From Patescibacteria group bacterium (GTDB lineage Bacteria; Patescibacteriota; Patescibacteriia; Patescibacteriales; UBA12465), in NCBI GenBank assembly GCA_041661685.1, contig JBAZTY010000001.1, positions 128,691 to 192,690 of the forward strand: a DNA stretch of 64,000 nucleotides, in the 5' to 3' direction. The position numbers were made by a program, and so were the translations under genes. Under the pieces are notes generated by a model, which searched no databases, was not told the origin of the DNA, and saw only the letters and a list, made by a program, of their open reading frames with translations. Positions 10,839-64,000 of this stretch are shown here, one piece after another (within the stretch, counting starts at the first letter, position 1; each line of letters starts with the position of its first letter).

Positions 10839-11585
10839 ATGTTTTTAATCCCTGCTGATTATTATCAGATTAAGAAGACTAAGAAAAAAGGCCGCGGCGT
10901 CTTTGCGCGCCGCGAGATTCCGGCCGGAACTATTATCGGCGACTACGTCGGCTTATTGATCAAGGACGAGAAAGCGGAACTCCTGGAAAAGAAATACGGT
11001 AATGCCTGCTACTCTATGGATTATAATGATAACGGCTTGTCCATATTTCCGGTCGACGTCAAAGCTCCCGGCGTTCATCTGATTAATCATTCCTGCTCTT
11101 CTAATTGCGACGCTTATTTTTATTTCGGCCATACTTTGTATTTCGCTCTCCGTCGCATCTTGCCGGGAGAAGAATTGACGATTGATTACGGCTTCGATAC
11201 GGACAACAGCAATAAGAAAGAATTCTTGCATCCTTGCTTCTGTGGCAGTCCGTTCTGCCGCGGCACGATGTATACGAGCGACGCGAAATTAAGACGCTAC
11301 GGCGCCTTCTATCGTGCTGAAACTAAGGGGCAGAAATTTAAGACGTTCGCGGCTGGAAAAATATTATTGCCGCTAGAAAAATATCCGCCAGAGATACAAG
11401 ATAATGTCGTCTTTAATTTATTCGCAGACAGGGAAGCGGCGCCGCTTAATCAAGAAGATGAGAAGATGCCTAGCATTTCCGAATTGAGAAAACGCTTGCG
11501 AGAGAGCGGGCGCATCCTGAATTTTAAGAAGATTGGCTTGAAAGTTTCCGCTATCGTCGAGGGCCTGATCGTCTCCGGAAAATAG
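10839..11585 (+). CDS. SET-domain methyltransferase (248 aa) with a post-SET Cys motif and a C-terminal extension
   Basis: KGRGVFARREIPAGTIIGDY, LINHSCSSNC, EELTIDYGF, CFCGSPFCRG. Confidence 0.8.
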   Translation: MFLIPADYYQIKKTKKKGRGVFARREIPAGTIIGDYVGLLIKDEKAELLEKKYGNACYSMDYNDNGLSIFPVDVKAPGVHLINHSCSSNCDAYFYFGHTLYFALRRILPGEELTIDYGFDTDNSNKKEFLHPCFCGSPFCRGTMYTSDAKLRRYGAFYRAETKGQKFKTFAAGKILLPLEKYPPEIQDNVVFNLFADREAAPLNQEDEKMPSISELRKRLRESGRILNFKKIGLKVSAIVEGLIVSGK

Positions 11586-57196: not shown

Positions 57197-57267
57197 TCGG
57201 GGATCGTCTAACGGTAGGACAACAGGTTCTGGTCCTGTTTATTGGGGTTCGAATCCCTATCCCCGAG
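57197..57267 (+). tRNA. tRNA-Gln (anticodon CUG)
   Basis: TCGGGGA-TC-GTCTAACGGTAGGAC-A-ACAGG-TTCTGGT-CCTGT-TTAT-TGGGG-TTCGAAT-CCCTA-TCCCCGA-G. U1-A72 as in bacterial tRNA-Gln. G37 is unusual. Confidence 0.85.
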
Positions 57268-58818
57268 CATCGATGAACTAACAGGTTGTAAAAGGCCTGT
57301 TTTTTCATAATCTTCGCCAAATTTTGCTAGTCCGAAACTACTATTTACTCGAGGCATCCATTCTGCTAAAAATCCGCCACCTAAAGTGTATTTTACCCTT
57401 ATTCTATCGCCCTTTAATTCAAAGTCCGAAAATAATTGTGATAAAACTAAACGCTTAGTTTCAACACTCTCTTCGGTGTTATCAATTAGATCCGGAGCTT
57501 CACTGGCCAAGCGATGAAGTTTGATGCCTTTTTCAAAGTCACTTATTTGATTAGTCGGGCTAAGTTGTTTAATTTTTTTCTCTAAATCTATCTTTTCACA
57601 GTTAAATTCATTATATTTTTTAGTATAAAAATCCTCAGTAATTTTGCCGTCCAGTTTGTCGTTATAGATTAGGTTTAATCTATTCTCAATCCGCTTTAAA
57701 CTCTCCTCTAAAGCCTGTTTTTGGCTTTCCAGAAGGTTATTATTGGTCGGCTCTACTTCTTTCATTGTGTTTTCTAACCAATCAATTAAGTGCGGTGTAG
57801 CGGCTTGCATCTTTTTCAAGTAAGCCATTAACTGATCAATAATATCTTGTTCTCTAACTCTGGTATTTTGCGAACAAGGGCGGTAATGATTACAGGTGCC
57901 ATAAATATGTCCCTTTCTTTCGCTCCAACTAATAATTCCGCCACATTCAGCGCAGCGAAGATTACCCTTAAAGATAAAGAGATGTTTTTTAAATTGAGCG
58001 GCCGATAATTTGCGCTTAATTCTAGTCTGCACTTTATCAAATAAGCTATTATCAACTATCGGTTCGTGATTACCAGGATAGATTTTTTTATTCCAGATAA
58101 TTTGTCCGGTATAAAAGGGATTAGTCAGCATACTGTGTAAAGTGTTTTTAGCGAGCATTTTTCCCGATGGTGTTTTTAGTCCTTGATCAAACATTACTTC
58201 GGCTAAAAATTTTAGAGAATAATTACCGCTAGCGTATAGCTCAAAAGCTTCTCTAATTAATGGCGCAATTTTTTCATCAATAATTTGTGTTTTATGTCCT
58301 TTGTCGCCAATTGTTTTATAACCTAAACACGGACGTTGCGGCATCCAACCGGATTCAAGTTTAGCTTTCTGTCCTTTCTTTACCTCCTCGCTTAAATTAT
58401 TAGTATAAAATCTGGCAATGGCTACTTTCATATCCCAGACTAAATTTTCATGAGCACGAGTATTACGGTTAACAACAAAATTTTCTTTAACAAAATGAAT
58501 TTCGTGGTTTTCGTTTTCATTAATCCAGTCGCTTATTATAGCTGCATCTCTAAGATTGCGAGTTAAGCGGTCTATTTTTTCAACCAGAAGAATATTAAAG
58601 CCGTTCTTTTTAACATAAACTAACATTTCAGAAAAAGTCTTCCTGATCAGCTTGCCGCTGGCGGATTCTGAAATCTTATAAATCTTGGCGATGCCAAATT
58701 CATTGCGAAGAGCATAATCTTTTAGCAGCTTTTCTTGAGCTTCTAGAGAATAGCCCCTATCCTCCTGTTCTTTAGAGGAAACTCGGCAATAAATTATACA
58801 TTGTTTAGCGTTTTTCAT
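57208..58818 (-). CDS. Large serine recombinase (integrase); the 3' end of the ORF runs antisense through tRNA-Gln
   Basis: CIIYCRVSSKEQEDRGYSLEAQ catalytic-Ser motif, VEKIDRLTRN, a recombinase domain, Zn-ribbon CAECGG...CNHY, and a coiled-coil. The Met at 58818 (MKNAKQC) is preferred over 58857. Confidence 0.85.
   Translation of the reverse strand: MKNAKQCIIYCRVSSKEQEDRGYSLEAQEKLLKDYALRNEFGIAKIYKISESASGKLIRKTFSEMLVYVKKNGFNILLVEKIDRLTRNLRDAAIISDWINENENHEIHFVKENFVVNRNTRAHENLVWDMKVAIARFYTNNLSEEVKKGQKAKLESGWMPQRPCLGYKTIGDKGHKTQIIDEKIAPLIREAFELYASGNYSLKFLAEVMFDQGLKTPSGKMLAKNTLHSMLTNPFYTGQIIWNKKIYPGNHEPIVDNSLFDKVQTRIKRKLSAAQFKKHLFIFKGNLRCAECGGIISWSERKGHIYGTCNHYRPCSQNTRVREQDIIDQLMAYLKKMQAATPHLIDWLENTMKEVEPTNNNLLESQKQALEESLKRIENRLNLIYNDKLDGKITEDFYTKKYNEFNCEKIDLEKKIKQLSPTNQISDFEKGIKLHRLASEAPDLIDNTEESVETKRLVLSQLFSDFELKGDRIRVKYTLGGGFLAEWMPRVNSSFGLAKFGEDYEKTGLLQPVSSSMLGDRDSNPNKQDQNLLSYR
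57281..57306 (+). terminator. Weak intrinsic terminator after tRNA-Gln
   Basis: acagg ... cctgt stem, extendable by G-U pairs, followed by tttttt. Confidence 0.45.
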
Positions 58819-58876
58819 ATTTTTGATAACTAAAAGGGAGCGGCTCCGTGCACACAAACCAATATCACTAAAAGCA

Positions 58877-58918
58877 ATACTTGTCTGTCAGAACCGCCCC
58901 CTTTTAGGGGACAAGTAT
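58877..58918. repeat. Interrupted inverted repeat upstream of the recombinase gene
   Basis: atacttgt ... acaagtat outer arms with an inner cccc-tttta-gggg. Confidence 0.4.
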
Positions 58919-58935
58919 AAAAAAAGCCTTTAGTA

Positions 58936-59118
58936 TTATGTTTGATTTGTGTGCTTCTTCATATTAGCAAAATGTCTAGATAATTTCAACTTTTTTAAAC
59001 CGGAAAAATAGGTGACTAATTGGTGGCCAAGTTCAAACGCCTCGGAATCCGTCAGATCTCGTCCGTAATCATCTTTGATGATTATCTTCAGTTGTTCCAG
59101 TCTGAACTTGCTAATCAT
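58936..59118 (-). CDS. Hypothetical small protein (60 aa)
   Basis: Co-oriented ORF within the island. No motif. Confidence 0.35.
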   Translation of the reverse strand: MISKFRLEQLKIIIKDDYGRDLTDSEAFELGHQLVTYFSGLKKLKLSRHFANMKKHTNQT

Positions 59119-59155
59119 AAATAATATTTATCGTAAAAAGTTTGTGCAGGACTTT

Positions 59156-59335
59156 TTACTCAATTTCTTTAAGGGCTCTTTCATAAGAGGCTAATTTTCT
59201 CTTAAGCATTTCGGTATCGCTTGAATGCTCAAAACTTTCTCCGGCCTCTAAAGCTTTTTTCATTCCGTTAATTTTTCCGACCAGCCAGGCGTGATAGCCG
59301 TAAGTGCCGAAATTAATTTTTTCTAAGTTTGCCAT
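59156..59335 (-). CDS. Hypothetical small protein (59 aa; not in the supplied ORF track)
   Basis: My translation of the minus strand is MANLEKINFGTYGYHAWLVGKINGMKKALEAGESFEHSSDTEMLKRKLASYERALKEIE. Its start lies 5 nt downstream of the Rep stop. Confidence 0.35.
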   Translation of the reverse strand: MANLEKINFGTYGYHAWLVGKINGMKKALEAGESFEHSSDTEMLKRKLASYERALKEIE

Positions 59336-59340
59336 ATTGT

Positions 59341-60180
59341 TTAATTGCTAGAGGGGAGTTGATAAATATTTACTGTCACCTCGCCTCGATATTTATTCTT
59401 AAATTCTTTCTCATAAACTTTTTCTAGAGGAGGGGAGTAATTAGCCATCACCTCTTCGCTCTCCAGACCTTTAAACTCTTGCGGTCGGTTTAAATTGCGA
59501 GAATAGAAGAATTTCTTTTTACCGAAATATTTTTTATTAAACGATTCTTTGCTTAAATACTTGGAGACATAGAGGCCGACATTATTGATTGATTTTATTT
59601 TATTGATTTTTACGAAACCGTGCCGCCAAATTTTCTCAATTTTTTTAGTCTCAACTTTTTGATTCAGGAGCAAATGATAGTGAATGGCTCCGCCGAATTC
59701 TTTTTTGATATTGGTGCGGAAATAGTAATCGCCTTGAAATTCGGGAACGGCCAGATATTTAATGCCTAGGAAATTATATTTCAGCCTTTGCATAAAAGTC
59801 ATAAACAGATAATTGCATTTTTCAAATTCGGTAATTTCTTTTTTATTGGTAAATTTATTTTCATCGAAGGTCAGAGTCAGGAAAGTAATAAAATCGGGAT
59901 TGCTATTTACTAGGCGCATAATGTTCATTCTCGTTCGCCTTAAGGCGCCGCTTCTCATTTCTGTTTGTTCTTCCTGGGGTTTATTCTTCCGCTTCTTTTT
60001 GCGAACCCGTTTCTTGCCGGTAGTTATTTCGTTTTGATAAATATATTCCTCAATGAATTGTCCGGAGATAATTATTTTGGTTTTATAAGACCCTTTAGCT
60101 CGTTTTTCTTTAGCTTTTTTAATGTATTCTAAATACTTTAATCGTCCACGTTCTAATCTATCTGTATCTTTGTTATCCAT
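59341..60180 (-). CDS. HUH-superfamily rolling-circle replication initiator (Rep)
   Basis: All three RCR motifs in order: FITFLTLTF (I), AIHYHLLLN (II, HUH) and GLYVSKYLSKE (III, catalytic Tyr). Highly basic N-terminus. Confidence 0.7.
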   Translation of the reverse strand: MDNKDTDRLERGRLKYLEYIKKAKEKRAKGSYKTKIIISGQFIEEYIYQNEITTGKKRVRKKKRKNKPQEEQTEMRSGALRRTRMNIMRLVNSNPDFITFLTLTFDENKFTNKKEITEFEKCNYLFMTFMQRLKYNFLGIKYLAVPEFQGDYYFRTNIKKEFGGAIHYHLLLNQKVETKKIEKIWRHGFVKINKIKSINNVGLYVSKYLSKESFNKKYFGKKKFFYSRNLNRPQEFKGLESEEVMANYSPPLEKVYEKEFKNKYRGEVTVNIYQLPSSN

Positions 60181-60247
60181 ATCACTTAAATCTTGTTGAG
60201 TGTGCTTATAGTCAAGTTAATAAGCAGATGTGAAGCGTTATATCTTG

Positions 60248-60316
60248 CCGCCTCTGTTTTTCTTTTTCGGCTCCCCCACGGGGTAGCCGCCGAAAAAGAA
60301 AAAAACAGAGAGACGG
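60248..60316. repeat. Long hairpin (about 28 bp) upstream of the Rep gene; candidate replication origin or terminator
   Basis: ctctgtttttctttttcggc ... gccgaaaaagaaaaa(aa)cagag arms enclosing cccc-cac-gggg. Confidence 0.7.
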
Positions 60317-60486
60317 ATAATTTTTGACGTTTAAGCATATGAGCAGAATTATGAATTAGTGAGGAGCTCGACCTTTTGGATTGTCTCCTAACCTATATGG
60401 ACGAAATTTCGCAGGCAATAAAAAAATCCCCTAACTTTAGATAAGTTAAGGGATTAAATTAGCAGGGAAATAGCGAGGAAATTTCT

Positions 60487-61560
60487 TTAGTAGTTGGGCA
60501 GATATTCTTTAGGCGGTAGTTTTTTACTGTCTGATTCGGAGATATGACGGTCTTGCCAGGATTCTCTGAATTCCGGTGGCGAGACAAGCTTAATTTTTAT
60601 TTGATATTCTTCATTTTTTTCATTGTAAACTATGGGGTCGTCTTTTAGTCCGAAGTGGGCTTTTAACCTTTTTGATAAGTCCTGTTTATTCTTCTTGAAT
60701 AAGTCTTTCTTAGCTTTACTTCCGGCATACATATTCATTTTAATACGGCCGTTTTGAGTCGAGAATAAGATAAGGGTATTCCAGCTTTTAATATAGGTCG
60801 CTTTTTGCGAGGAATCCTGACGAGTATCGGCAAAGCCCAGCTTATCATAACTGGAGTCGGATTCTTGGCCGTCTATTACCAAGGTCACATCGTAATTATT
60901 TTTAAACCTGATTTCAACGCTTTCCCAACTATCAGTTATTGGTTCTTTATATATTTTACTTTCAGTATCGGCGAATTCCCCAACCATAATAGAAGCTTCC
61001 AGCCAGCTCATAACGCTCTTATTAAAATCTAGCAGAAATCTCTTGTGGAGTTTCGGTTTTAGGACTATATCTAACTTAAATTTTTTTAATTCTTCCTCCA
61101 TCCCTTTTATTTCTTTGACCTGTCCGTCATAGTCATTCTCTATTAAAGCCTTTTTTAAAGGCGCTAAACTGCCAACCTTAAGAGATTTTTGATAAGCAGG
61201 CGCATAAAGACTAGCACCACCAATCATTTCTTTAAACAAACTGTAGTAAACCCAGTTATATGATTTAGTTTTACTGTTTTTTATTTTCCCTAAATTTTGT
61301 CCGAATAAGGCGCCGTCATGATCGTTATCTTTAACTTCTTTGCGGAGTAAAATCATAAATCCGCTAAATATCTTCTCCGATTCAATAATATCTAAATATT
61401 TTTTGATAATAGTAAAAAGCTCGGGCAGCTTGTCGGAAATAGACAAGGTTTCAGTGAGCTTTATGTTTTTTCGGGAAAAAATAACCTTGAAATAAGTCTT
61501 ACGAAATTCAGTAATAAGGCTTTCAAGGGTATTTTTTAATTGTTTGGCATCTTCAGTCAT
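60487..61560 (-). CDS. Hypothetical protein (357 aa), island cargo of unknown function
   Basis: Long AT-rich ORF co-oriented with Rep. No motif I can recognise. Confidence 0.55.
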   Translation of the reverse strand: MTEDAKQLKNTLESLITEFRKTYFKVIFSRKNIKLTETLSISDKLPELFTIIKKYLDIIESEKIFSGFMILLRKEVKDNDHDGALFGQNLGKIKNSKTKSYNWVYYSLFKEMIGGASLYAPAYQKSLKVGSLAPLKKALIENDYDGQVKEIKGMEEELKKFKLDIVLKPKLHKRFLLDFNKSVMSWLEASIMVGEFADTESKIYKEPITDSWESVEIRFKNNYDVTLVIDGQESDSSYDKLGFADTRQDSSQKATYIKSWNTLILFSTQNGRIKMNMYAGSKAKKDLFKKNKQDLSKRLKAHFGLKDDPIVYNEKNEEYQIKIKLVSPPEFRESWQDRHISESDSKKLPPKEYLPNY

Positions 61561-61789
61561 AGTGAGCTTATTTTATAACGTAAAGTTTTAATAGTCAAAA
61601 GCAGAGAAACGGGGTGGATTGTCTATCTGTGGCTTCTCATTTTAGCGTCAGCTTATCGCCTCTCAAGGTAGTGCCTGTGGCCTCCACTTTGACTGTCGCA
61701 AGCCATCAGACGCTGTCTCATTTCGTGCCGATAGATAATCTAAGGCGACGTTATCCGGCAATTTAATATCAGTCGCTACATTTAATTTT

Positions 61790-62083
61790 ATGACTATATC
61801 AGTCAAATCAAATTGGACAGGTTCAGAGAGCACCTCTGATCTTGTTAGAAAGCAGATTGCCGAGCGTTGGGGCGAAGATGAAGCTAAACGCTATAATCCG
61901 TTTGTTAATTGCTTCACCTTTAACGGTTGGCTTAAAAACGGCTATGTCGTTCGTAAGGACGAAAAGGCTATCCGGTCTTTCATTATCGTTGAGAAGAAAG
62001 ATAAGAAAACTGGAGCGGTGATAGAAAAGCGTCCTAAGACGATTTACCTTTTCTACGAGAAACAGGTTGAAGCGCAAGCTTAA
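61790..62083 (+). CDS. Small protein with weak resemblance to the ArdC N-terminal ssDNA-binding domain
   Basis: FTFNGWLKNGYVVRKDEKAI resembles the (L)TF.QA..LGG.VRKGEK motif. Low-confidence, motif-level only. Confidence 0.3.
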   Translation: MTISVKSNWTGSESTSDLVRKQIAERWGEDEAKRYNPFVNCFTFNGWLKNGYVVRKDEKAIRSFIIVEKKDKKTGAVIEKRPKTIYLFYEKQVEAQA

Positions 62084-62090
62084 CAAATTC

Positions 62091-62126
62091 AGGAGCTGAC
62101 TCTTAAAGGGTTGGCTCCTTTTTTTG
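62091..62126 (+). terminator. Intrinsic terminator after the ArdC-N-like ORF
   Basis: ggagc ... gctcc stem followed by ttttttt. Confidence 0.55.
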
Positions 62127-62193
62127 TATAGGCAATAGCCATTTGATTTTATTGTAGTTAAAAATAAAAGAGCTCAGTTTAGACTGAACTTTT

Positions 62194-62670
62194 TTATTGT
62201 AAAGTTTTTATTCTTTCTGTTTCGCTAAGTAGTAAAGCGGCCAGCTTAATATTAAAATTCATGATTAATGTAAGTTCCTTTTCACTATAGCCAACAAGGA
62301 TCTCCGGCATCTTTTTGATAAACAAATTGCGTGCCAGATTTAAATGACTCGGGTTGTCAACTATTAATCTAACGATAATTTTTCTTCTATCACTCTTATG
62401 GGCTTCACGTCTGATGAAATTAGCTTTTTCCAACCTATCAATTGCGGCAGTCATGGCACCAGTCGTGAGATTGGTTATTTTTGCCAATTCACCGGCACTA
62501 GCAAAACGTACCTCACTTAAATAATCCAAACATTTTATATCAGTAGGATGTATCCCAGTTGTTTCTGAAATTGACTGCACAAACAATATTGCCGCCCTAG
62601 TTTCTTTCTGAAAAGAGTTTATTAAATTATATATTGTTTTCTGATTAGCAATAGTCTTTTTAGATTCCAT
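62194..62670 (-). CDS. MarR-family transcriptional regulator
   Basis: Winged-helix pattern: AGELAKITNLTTGAMTAAIDRLEKANFIRREAHKSDRRKIIVRL. Confidence 0.8.
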   Translation of the reverse strand: MESKKTIANQKTIYNLINSFQKETRAAILFVQSISETTGIHPTDIKCLDYLSEVRFASAGELAKITNLTTGAMTAAIDRLEKANFIRREAHKSDRRKIIVRLIVDNPSHLNLARNLFIKKMPEILVGYSEKELTLIMNFNIKLAALLLSETERIKTLQ

Positions 62671-62836
62671 AGTTTTAAATAATAATTTGCATATATTACA
62701 AATTTACTTTATACTAAAGTTACTTAATAGTCAAGATATATAAATCTTTAAAGTGAATTTAATATACATTATTTTTATTGCACACAATCTTAAAAATAAT
62801 ATTTCTATAGTTTATTTCAAATAATAACATTAATTT

Positions 62837-64000
62837 ATGAATAAAAAGCATCTATTAATTACGCTTGGAGGGATTGTTGTAGTCGGCGGTATTATCACCA
62901 GCTTTTTTGTGCGCCAATCAAATTTATCACCAGCCAATTTAGTAAGTGTTCAAAAGGGAGATATAATTCAAGAGATTTCAGCTACAGGAAACGTTGAATC
63001 ACCATCAGATATTAATTTACGATTTAAAAATAGCGGAAAATTAACATCTCTAAAGGTAAAGATAGGGGACGTTGTTAGCGCTGGGCAGATTTTAGCGGAG
63101 CTGGATTCTAGTCAATTAGATGCCGATATAATGGATATGCAGTCCGGAATAAATTTACAAAAAGCTAAATTGAATCAATTGCGAGCTGGCAACTCACAGG
63201 AAAATATAATGTTATCAGAGACAAGTGTCGCTCATGCTAAATCTTCATATGACTCTGCTATTGAGAATTTAGATAAAGTTAAAAATGTAACTGCTATAAA
63301 TATTGCACAAGCGCAAAAAAACTATGACGATATTATAGGAGATACGCCATTTCATGTCACAAACTATGAGCAGGCAGTTAAAACGGCACAAAGTTTTTTG
63401 GAAAACACCATTAAAACTAGTGATCAAAATGTAAAAAATAAAAAAGCTTCTGCTTTAACTGTTGCTGAAGACAAGCTTGGGGTTGCTAGTATAGCTCTTG
63501 ATAATATCCAAAGGCTTTTAGATGATAGTGCTGCTGACAATCTTTTGAGCGTCCTTAATACAAATTACCTATATTTAACAAAAACTAATCTAGATCTAGC
63601 AAAAACTGAATTAACTTTAGCTAAAAATAAATTAATCATTGCTAAAACGAGTCAGGAAGATGATGATATTAACCTAGCTTTTGACTCATCAAATACTGCT
63701 TTAAATCTTAGCTATACCGCTATAACCTACTGTTACCAGGTTTTAGAAAATACTATTACTTCTAGTTCATTTCCTCAGAGCTCCCTTGACTCATATAAAA
63801 GTGCAATAAGTTCACAGCGAACCCTTCTCGGTTCTGCGGTCAGCGCAACACAAATTTCGCAACAAAATATTACCGATGCTTTATTAAGTAAGGAAACAAA
63901 TACAAATAGTGCACAAAAAGCATTAGAACAGTCTAAGGTAACTCTAGAAAACATGAAAATAAACTATTTAAATGCTTTAGAATTGAGCCATTCAAATGGT
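62837..64000 (+). CDS. HlyD/MacA-type periplasmic adaptor (membrane-fusion) protein, 3' end outside the window; not in the supplied ORF track
   Basis: The ATG at 62837 opens a frame that runs to base 64000. TM anchor, then VQKGDIIQEISATGNVESPSDINLRFKNSGKLTSLKVKIGDVVSAGQILAELD (lipoyl/beta-barrel start), then a long coiled-coil. Confidence 0.6.
   Translation, partial: MNKKHLLITLGGIVVVGGIITSFFVRQSNLSPANLVSVQKGDIIQEISATGNVESPSDINLRFKNSGKLTSLKVKIGDVVSAGQILAELDSSQLDADIMDMQSGINLQKAKLNQLRAGNSQENIMLSETSVAHAKSSYDSAIENLDKVKNVTAINIAQAQKNYDDIIGDTPFHVTNYEQAVKTAQSFLENTIKTSDQNVKNKKASALTVAEDKLGVASIALDNIQRLLDDSAADNLLSVLNTNYLYLTKTNLDLAKTELTLAKNKLIIAKTSQEDDDINLAFDSSNTALNLSYTAITYCYQVLENTITSSSFPQSSLDSYKSAISSQRTLLGSAVSATQISQQNITDALLSKETNTNSAQKALEQSKVTLENMKINYLNALELSHSNG

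Follow-up and report, generated by a model that had tools for sequence, protein, structure and literature searches.

The described systems closest to the element analysed here are the phage phiX174, the filamentous Ff phages (M13, f1 and fd), the rolling-circle plasmids of the pC194/pUB110 family and small replicons such as RS1 of CTXphi and pDolos. The element itself, which spans approximately 4.87 kb (positions ~57267–62133), is integrated beside a tRNA-Gln gene in a 64,000-nucleotide (nt) stretch of a Patescibacteria genome (GenBank assembly GCA_041661685.1, contig JBAZTY010000001.1, positions 128,691–192,690; this whole stretch is called the window), and carries a rep gene together with an origin region. 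Our analysis indicates a known kind of system, namely a rolling-circle replicon in which the double-strand origin and the single-strand module are separate, and suggests an origin of two parts, wherein a near-invariant block would be nicked by Rep and a large hairpin would remain uncut.

In phiX174, the origin is 30 bp long and lies within gene A, and complementary-strand synthesis begins at a distant primosome assembly site. The window element resembles phiX174 in the order of its HUH motifs, in motif 1, in the origin core AACTTGA and in the placement of the origin on the Rep-coding strand. A pairwise comparison of the window Rep with the phiX174 A protein is weak (E = 0.013) yet collinear, and aligns the two-tyrosine motif 3 of the two proteins (VGLYVSKYLSK here, VGFYVAKYVNK there). 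In contrast, phiX174 has no T/A-tract hairpin adjacent to its origin and no integrase, and its A protein comprises 513 amino acids (aa) rather than 279.

In the Ff phages, the intergenic region upstream of gene II carries several distinct hairpins, which serve as the packaging signal, the minus-strand origin and the plus-strand origin (nick). The order of large single-strand hairpin(s), nick-site hairpin and rep gene is the same in the window element, and the Ff hairpins work on the displaced (+) strand, as we propose here. Relatives of the window element also encode a Zot/pI morphogenesis ATPase and small coat-like proteins, whereas the element itself has one large hairpin and no morphogenesis genes. 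The Ff pII protein belongs to another Pfam family (Phage_CRI), and the Ff nick sequence differs.

The Reps of pC194/pUB110 plasmids are members of the Rep_1 family with one Tyr and a Glu, and these plasmids have single-strand origins that are longer and contain multiple stems. In rolling-circle plasmids, single-strand origins are interchangeable cassettes and, like the Ff minus-origin and packaging hairpins, also lie just upstream of the nick. The window element has in common with the pC194/pUB110 family a structured non-coding element upstream of the nick that is exchanged independently of Rep lineage, as well as the nick-region core CTTGA(T/C)(T)A (PMC5031790, PMC7072734). Unlike the window element, these plasmids are not integrative.

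RS1 and pDolos are likewise small rolling-circle replicons that lack virion genes and share features with filamentous phages, and a short packaging signal suffices for such a replicon according to the description of pDolos (bioRxiv 10.1101/2023.11.28.569023). The window element differs in that it has its own serine integrase, and any helper phage, packaging or transfer here is putative. In the term-matched passages of Roux et al. 2019 (PMC6813254), inoviruses are described in the Candidate Phyla Radiation (CPR), with serine recombinases, and rolling-circle replication (RCR) Rep and serine recombinase modules are placed among inovirus gene families; origin DNA elements and satellites are unmentioned in these passages. 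The host phylum is the same as that of the window element, and its relatives from IMG/VR are contigs of this type.

The replication module comprises the following features.

59341–60180, minus strand: Rep, 279 aa, a two-tyrosine HUH rolling-circle initiator of the PF23343 ORF2/G2P type.
60200–60220, minus strand: predicted origin core TTAACTTGACTATAAGCACAC, 21 nt, a near-invariant block beside rep genes.
60203–60226, minus strand: small putative nick-site hairpin with a 7-bp stem (TGCTTAT/ATAAGCA) and loop TAACTTGACT.
60248–60316, minus strand: large T/A-tract hairpin of 26–29 pairs with a GC-rich asymmetric tip.

The 279-aa protein is a genuine HUH rolling-circle Rep with conserved catalytic residues. 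Its motifs FLTLTF (residues 100–105), HYHLLL (167–172) and YVSKYLSK (204–211) occur in that order, as a preliminary description of this region had noted for the open reading frame (ORF), and they correspond to the motif 1 (uuTu), motif 2 (HUH metal site) and motif 3 (Tyr) that define the superfamily. The Rep matches the Pfam family PF23343 (REP_ORF2-G2P) with 54.4 bits (cutoff 27.8) over profile positions 2–98 of 99, and this domain is carried by all 120 of the listed Rep homologues; matches to PHROG 3584 and 3419 are also to RCR initiators. Residues F100, L103, T104, H167, Y168, H169, Y204, Y208 and K211 are invariant among 22 aligned homologues, the most divergent of which is 39% identical. 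The His pair and Tyr on which the preliminary identification of an HUH Rep had been made to depend are therefore present throughout, and the invariant YxxxY arrangement of Y204 and Y208 is that of the two-tyrosine (phiX174 A-like) proteins.

An AlphaFold2 (AF2) model of the Rep (mean predicted local distance difference test (pLDDT) score of 84) has 131 matches at E ≤ 1e-3 among predicted viral structures, the top ones being ORF2/G2P-domain proteins and microvirus replication initiators. The best matches of the model in the PDB are RepB of pMV158 (probability 0.87, E = 0.058) and the Rep of the geminivirus tomato yellow leaf curl virus, with none at E ≤ 0.001, and a sequence profile search of the PDB with the Rep returned no match. 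The protein has no helicase domain and thus would depend on a host helicase.

Searches of genomes, metagenomes and IMG/VR yielded 137 loci with a rep gene, which are of three kinds. The closest Rep homologues are found in Shapirobacteria, Falkowbacteria and other Patescibacteria metagenome-assembled genomes (MAGs). Window-type elements (approximately 42 loci, Rep at least 85% identical) never carry virion genes and comprise a 97-aa gene, a 357-aa or alternative 307-aa gene, the origin, Rep, two small ORFs and the integrase. Minimal elements (Rep 41–50% identical) consist of only the origin, Rep and a serine integrase, and often lie beside tRNA-Glu. The third kind has filamentous-phage-like genomes and comprises IMG/VR contigs (Rep 34–41% identical) and one metagenome contig, L051 (Rep 72%). 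The IMG/VR contigs encode a Zot/pI morphogenesis ATPase, a ~90-aa coat-like protein, a 520–620-aa protein and an ArdC-N-like protein, of which L051 has only the Zot and ArdC-N-like genes. The Zot assignment is based on Pfam (Zot, 7e-11) and PHROG 197 and 1675, and Zot and coat homologues are present in L099–L117 and L152. Two or three different family members can reside in one Patescibacteria MAG (L001 and L012 in JBMOHE01; L008, L013 and L016 in JBAXPN01), and no Zot-encoding copies were detected among 19 genome hits.

The DNA feature that is most constant beside these rep genes is the 21-nt block. In the window, its pattern occurs once (chance expectation, 0.02 matches); the block lies 31 nt downstream of the large hairpin, and its CTTG|A sequence lies 32 nt before the Rep ATG at 60180. 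Blocks in other loci were located by using the 9-nt anchor CTTGAYYAT only, such that flanking positions were unselected. In 108 of the 135 Rep loci, the anchor precedes the Rep match by no more than 400 nt, and most of the remaining loci either have no upstream sequence or encode the most distant Reps. Among 97 distinct sequences, the unselected flanks of the anchor (T-4, A-1, A+9 and CACAC) are 92–99% conserved, and the block persists with Reps of 34–100% identity. Read in the rep sense, the layout is a large T/A-tract hairpin, a spacer, TTAACTTGA(C/T)TATAnsCACAC and a nearby ATG, and it is uniform, except for a few one-base variants, in all loci with enough upstream sequence and a Rep of at least ~38% identity. 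A scan of 2.9 million viral contigs (IMG/VR) that used only the 21-nt DNA pattern yielded eight matching contigs, seven of which were already known from Rep homology; the eighth (L152) has Rep, Zot and the hairpin.

The block spans the loop and 3′ arm of the small 7-bp hairpin, with AACTTGAC located in the loop. A perfect stem of at least 5 bp surrounds CTTGA in 40 of 64 non-redundant origins, and the stem sequence depends on lineage (tgcttat/ataagca versus gtgtgcctat/ataggcacac). In the GenBank record of phiX174, the rep_origin is annotated at A4306 of ...CCCCCAACTTG|ATATTAATAAC (AACTTG|ATA). The sequence AACTTGA is common to the window block and the phiX174 origin; for distant relatives, the stretch in common with phiX174 is AACTTGAT. 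The pC194/pUB110 plasmid origin contains CTTGATA (PMC5031790; sequence also in PMC7072734).

Double-strand origins have a conserved nick sequence beside rep, usually in a hairpin loop, and the 21-nt block has this character. We infer that the block is the core of the double-strand origin. By analogy, the nick is most likely at CTTG|A, between G60213 and A60212 on the minus (rep-sense) strand. The nick is placed in this block because an invariant active site is expected to have an invariant substrate, whereas the tips of the large hairpin vary. A role for the same block as the rep promoter, with TTGACT as the -35 element, was considered and rejected: there is no acceptable -10 element, a promoter scan was negative and distant relatives carry TTGATT.

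The second part of the proposed origin is the large hairpin, which lies in non-coding DNA 68–136 nt upstream of the Rep ATG. Its inverted-repeat arms (60252–60271 and 60289–60308/10) are 20 nt long and 90% complementary, with the tip cccc-cac-gggg, and both the coordinates and the sequences given for it in the preliminary description are correct. Folded as single-stranded DNA (ssDNA), positions 60230–60330 reach -22.5 kcal/mol (z = -4.58), and none of 200 dinucleotide shuffles is as stable. The hairpin is also the most stable 80-nt local fold of the 4.87-kb element (mean -5.4, standard deviation 3.0 kcal/mol). Presence of the hairpin next to homologous rep genes had been set beforehand as a check, and a hairpin of at least 22 pairs indeed lies 2–53 nt upstream of the motif in 63 of the 64 non-redundant origins, with Rep identity down to 34%. 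In 59 of the 64, the fold is more stable than all 60 dinucleotide shuffles (median z of -5.0), and in five Zot-encoding relatives the hairpin ranks first or near the top among inverted repeats that do not resemble terminators.

Conservation of the hairpin extends to paired changes in its arms. When the 145-nt origin region was simply aligned with MAFFT, RNAalifold predicted no pairs, because insertions and deletions shift the hairpin arms out of register, and conservation was therefore measured by alignment-free folding and by counting an explicit structure on the core alignment. When 32 core sequences were aligned with MAFFT without reference to any structure, pairing was found in 84% of cells, and both sides had changed in 18 of 26 pairs. 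For example, one pair is C:G in 19 sequences, T·G in 11, T:A in one and unpaired in one. None of 500 shuffles reaches any of the five measures, and sliding the pairing partners lowers all of these measures, with the peak at 0. As a separate observation, in many relatives other than the window (L051, L057, L063, L096, L105, L106, L111, L114 and others) the hairpin is lengthened to 100–120 nt, with 40–49 pairs, by pairing of the conserved spacer motif GGTAAATGAGATTTTAGAC with GTCTAAAATCTC on its 5′ side.

These features are consistent with an origin of two parts, to which we assign a probability of roughly 0.6: a core block that is nicked, and a large hairpin that is not cut and acts as a module of the displaced rep-sense strand. 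By this model, Rep would cut CTTG|A (60213/60212) and attach to the 5′ end through Tyr204 or Tyr208, and host polymerase and helicase would extend the 3′-OH and peel off the rep-sense strand. Because the large hairpin lies just upstream of the nick on the same strand, it would be the last sequence displaced. The second tyrosine would close the circle after one round, and the large hairpin would fold, uncut, on the released rep-sense single strand. There it would serve most likely as the complementary-strand (single-strand) origin. A single-strand origin is a non-coding, extensively base-paired and strand-specific element, and the large hairpin has each of these properties; its priming function is predicted. 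In the filamentous relatives that make virions, the hairpin may also, or instead, be a packaging signal.

The strand on which the hairpin acts is indicated by its imperfect pairs. Rep-sense folds contain 37 G·T wobbles versus a single A·C mismatch, and of the two strands it is the sense strand that gives the more stable fold in 40 cases versus 15 (Wilcoxon p = 2e-5). This bias fits a hairpin that forms in ssDNA or RNA of rep polarity, which is the strand that also carries the nick motif, and argues against a palindrome that acts purely as duplex DNA. A duplex palindrome or cruciform that binds Rep or a host protein, and thereby loads Rep or melts the origin, has precedents in the ‘bind’ locus of pMV158 and IR-III of pT181. 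The closeness of the hairpin to the nick block and the tendency of A/T tracts to favour bending and melting would suit such a site, and inverted repeats bound by dimers show paired changes as well. However, neither the 37:1 ratio on one strand nor the greater stability of the sense fold is expected for duplex DNA. Moreover, arms of 25–30 bp, with 40–49 pairs in relatives, are far beyond operator length, and an identical tip found with Reps that are merely 38–40% identical argues against a determinant of Rep specificity. We therefore consider a duplex binding site unlikely.

The hairpin might instead act in the leader RNA of rep, as an RNase III processing site or by controlling stability or translation. 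The favoured strand is the coding strand of rep, and a perfect stem of 25–30 bp would presumably suit RNase III. In contrast, no promoter-like site was found upstream of the hairpin within the window, and the hairpin is kept where the upstream gene is divergent, co-directional or absent. It has no U-tract and is thus not an attenuator, whereas the sole other strongly structured region (58829–58908) ends in a U-run and resembles an RNA terminator. In addition, every rolling-circle replicon requires a complementary-strand origin. A function in RNA is still more unlikely on these grounds.

The preliminary description had proposed that the large hairpin is itself the double-strand origin and nick site. 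Its placement within the conserved origin region holds, whereas its assignment as the nicked sequence is not supported. HUH Reps commonly nick hairpin loops, and this hairpin is conserved and adjoins rep, which would be expected if Rep cut its loop or tip. However, the tips are of at least five unrelated types (GTG, CTT, GCTTGTCCGC, TTCTGCTAAC and GGTTGCCCG) while motif 3 of Rep is invariant, and the sole near-invariant DNA is the downstream 21-nt block with the phiX174 nick core. Hairpin type is also independent of Rep lineage. The tip GGCGG-ayCCCC-nnn-GGGGGAGCC occurs with Reps of 38–100% identity, including those of the Zot-encoding contigs L099 and L100, and a second tip type is common to L051 (Zot-encoding, Rep 72%) and minimal elements (Rep 45–50%). 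The large hairpin is thus a module separate from the Rep lineage, and nicking within it is very improbable.

That the hairpin terminates the upstream 357-aa gene, which lies in the same orientation and had been offered as the alternative in the preliminary description, is scarcely credible: that gene has its own canonical terminator (13-pair stem and T-run at 60425–60455) directly after its stop codon, which is the sole terminator-like site in a scan of 59900–61800; the large hairpin has no T-run on either strand, with the T-tract before the stem and the A-tract after it on both; and it persists where the neighbouring gene is divergent, as in Zot-encoding relatives, or absent. As a candidate attP site the hairpin is ruled out, given that it is intact and internal in integrated copies.

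Several points weigh against the proposal of a nicked core and an uncut single-strand module. Related origins are not phylogenetically independent, and the shuffle and Wilcoxon statistics given above overstate significance. The G·T strand bias fits rep-sense RNA equally well as ssDNA, and priming and packaging are indistinguishable from sequence data alone. In the most divergent lineage (the CTTGATTATA type), the small nick hairpin is either weak or missing, and the nick position leans on analogy with phiX174 and pC194. Finally, no excised circular form or attP junction was seen in any retrieved contig: searches for free circular forms gave no terminal overlaps of note, and no attP junction was present in any locus or in the 4.5–4.8-kb contigs L140–L146. 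The left end of these contigs, where present, abuts a tRNA, which indicates that the copies are integrated. Active replication of the window copy is therefore putative.

The borders and remaining genes of the element are as follows.

57197–57268, plus strand: tRNA-Gln(CTG), found by ARAGORN (Rfam tRNA, 56.6 bits); its 3′ end is the left junction (attL).
57208–58857, minus strand: large serine recombinase (integrase); Resolvase 2e-25, Recombinase 6e-19, PHROG 95 integrase 7.5e-85.
58829–58908, minus strand: structured leader and terminator between the 60-aa ORF and the integrase start, outside the origin.
58936–59118, minus strand: 60-aa small ORF, conserved in window-type elements, with no family match.
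59156–59335, minus strand: 59-aa small ORF directly downstream of rep, with no family match.
60425–60455, minus strand: intrinsic terminator of the 357-aa gene, a 13-pair stem then TTTTTATT.
60487–61560, minus strand: 357-aa protein, restricted to these elements.
61790–62083, plus strand: 97-aa ArdC-N-like (ssDNA-binding-type) protein; Pfam ArdcN E = 0.0027, below cutoff.
62090–62135, plus strand: right border and terminator of the 97-aa gene, ...CTCCTTTTTTTGTATAGRCAAT then unrelated host DNA; flanks diverge in more than 20 loci.

The same ~4.9-kb unit is present in other genomes with 80–87% nucleotide identity and unrelated DNA past both ends. It extends from the tRNA 3′ end, where homology with elements of other genomes begins (~57267), to ...TTTTTTTGTATAGRCAAT (~62133), and GC content falls from ~45% to ~35% at 57200. 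The tRNA is the sole match in an Rfam scan. More than 20 loci carry the element with differing host flanks, mostly at tRNA 3′ ends and in a few cases elsewhere. A recurrent unit with discrete borders and differing flanks indicates an integrated mobile unit. No direct repeats were found at the element ends, as expected for a serine recombinase, and the borders were therefore set by comparison. The DNA to the right of the element (62194–64000) has a GC content of 27–36%, lower than that of the element, and encodes a MarR-family regulator and the start of an HlyD-like membrane-fusion protein.

The integrase has the domains of a large serine recombinase, with a Zn_ribbon_recom match just under the Pfam cutoff, and, taken with the discrete borders next to a target site, it marks the element as one that such an enzyme inserted at the 3′ end of tRNA-Gln. 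The mechanical ORF start, a TTG at 58857, lies inside the structured leader; the ATG at 58818 (MKNAKQCIIYCRV...) is more plausible, because gene calls of 521–533 aa in related loci fit it. At its other end, the ORF crosses the left junction into tRNA-Gln antisense (57208–57270, minus strand), such that the last ~19 codons and the stop are host DNA when the element is integrated; in L141 the stop is also just past the junction. Given that host DNA supplies the end of the gene, the excised form must have a different C terminus.

The window and its relatives have a conserved, highly structured non-coding region of ~130 nt immediately before the serine-integrase gene (L001 ~11225–11365, L092 7110–7250, L100 2790–2925, L108 4635–4770 and L114 7088–7223). 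Two mutually exclusive folds can form, one a long multi-helix hairpin and the other a terminator, GGGG(G)CGG...CCGCTCCC then a U-run. RNAalifold on ten sequences predicts 22 pairs, five of which have compensatory changes. Among the local folds of the element, only the large hairpin is more stable than this leader, which matches no Rfam family. Judged from its folding, it is a candidate for attenuator or riboswitch-like control of integrase expression. Another conserved non-coding stretch is found ~250 nt upstream of the hairpin in L012, L013, L015 and L017–L019, where a terminator-like CACGAGCAATATATCCGGATATATCGCTTGTG is followed by a T-run; this stretch in minimal elements may encode a small RNA or have a regulatory function.

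The 59-aa ORF is conserved (56–98% identity) in elements with a Rep of at least 69% identity. The 357-aa protein has no match in Pfam, PHROG, NCBIfam or PADLOC, and its AF2 model (pLDDT 72.6) has no fold match in the PDB. Its 49 homologues include none that is functionally named, and the few for which an organism is named are from Patescibacteria MAGs. Elements that are otherwise almost the same differ in what fills the slot from the 97-aa gene to the origin, namely a gene for 357 aa in the window, 307 aa in L023 (4488–5411, followed by a separate 89-aa ORF) or 309 aa in L009 (2506–3435), the last of these types being distantly related to 271-aa proteins of Zot-encoding contigs. From this comparison, the slot looks like a position for variable cargo or a regulator. 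The GC-richer intergenic region at 61600–61790 is not significantly structured (z = -0.7 and -0.95).

The 97-aa protein has counterparts in the filamentous-phage-like contigs. Its homologue in L102 passes the ArdcN cutoff (23.8 versus 22.6 bits), and homologues in those Zot-encoding contigs that possess one are 57–94% identical. No Zot or coat homologues were found in the element or in the whole 64-kb window, and the gene content is thus not that of an Inovirus (Tubulavirales) genome, which has a pI/Zot ATPase and a major coat protein that is small and hydrophobic. As judged by gene content, the window element is related to inoviruses and is not a complete one.

The near identity of the hairpin tip in elements without virion genes and in Zot-encoding phages with very different Reps points to a further reading, which is possible but doubtful. 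The window element and the smaller Rep-plus-integrase elements may be widespread, integrative, phagemid-like satellites of Patescibacteria filamentous phages, with the hairpin as a shared packaging signal for the helper. If so, the satellites would keep the origin, Rep, integrase and sometimes the ssDNA-binding protein of the phage, and a helper phage would export them.

Within the limits of our literature search, two aspects appear to be new: the 3–5-kb integrative Patescibacteria replicons that share an origin with filamentous phages, and the phiX174-like nick core in this Rep lineage. The phiX174/pC194-type nick core CTTG|A would thereby extend to this Rep lineage, and replicons of 3–5 kb that integrate are linked to the filamentous phages of the CPR. 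Mobile elements of Patescibacteria (CPR) are almost unstudied experimentally, and the analysis provides a testable origin map for a family of more than 130 loci, with a predicted nick, a strand-specific hairpin module and element borders. The minimal cassette of Rep and origin, with or without the integrase, is a possible genetic tool for these mostly uncultivated organisms.

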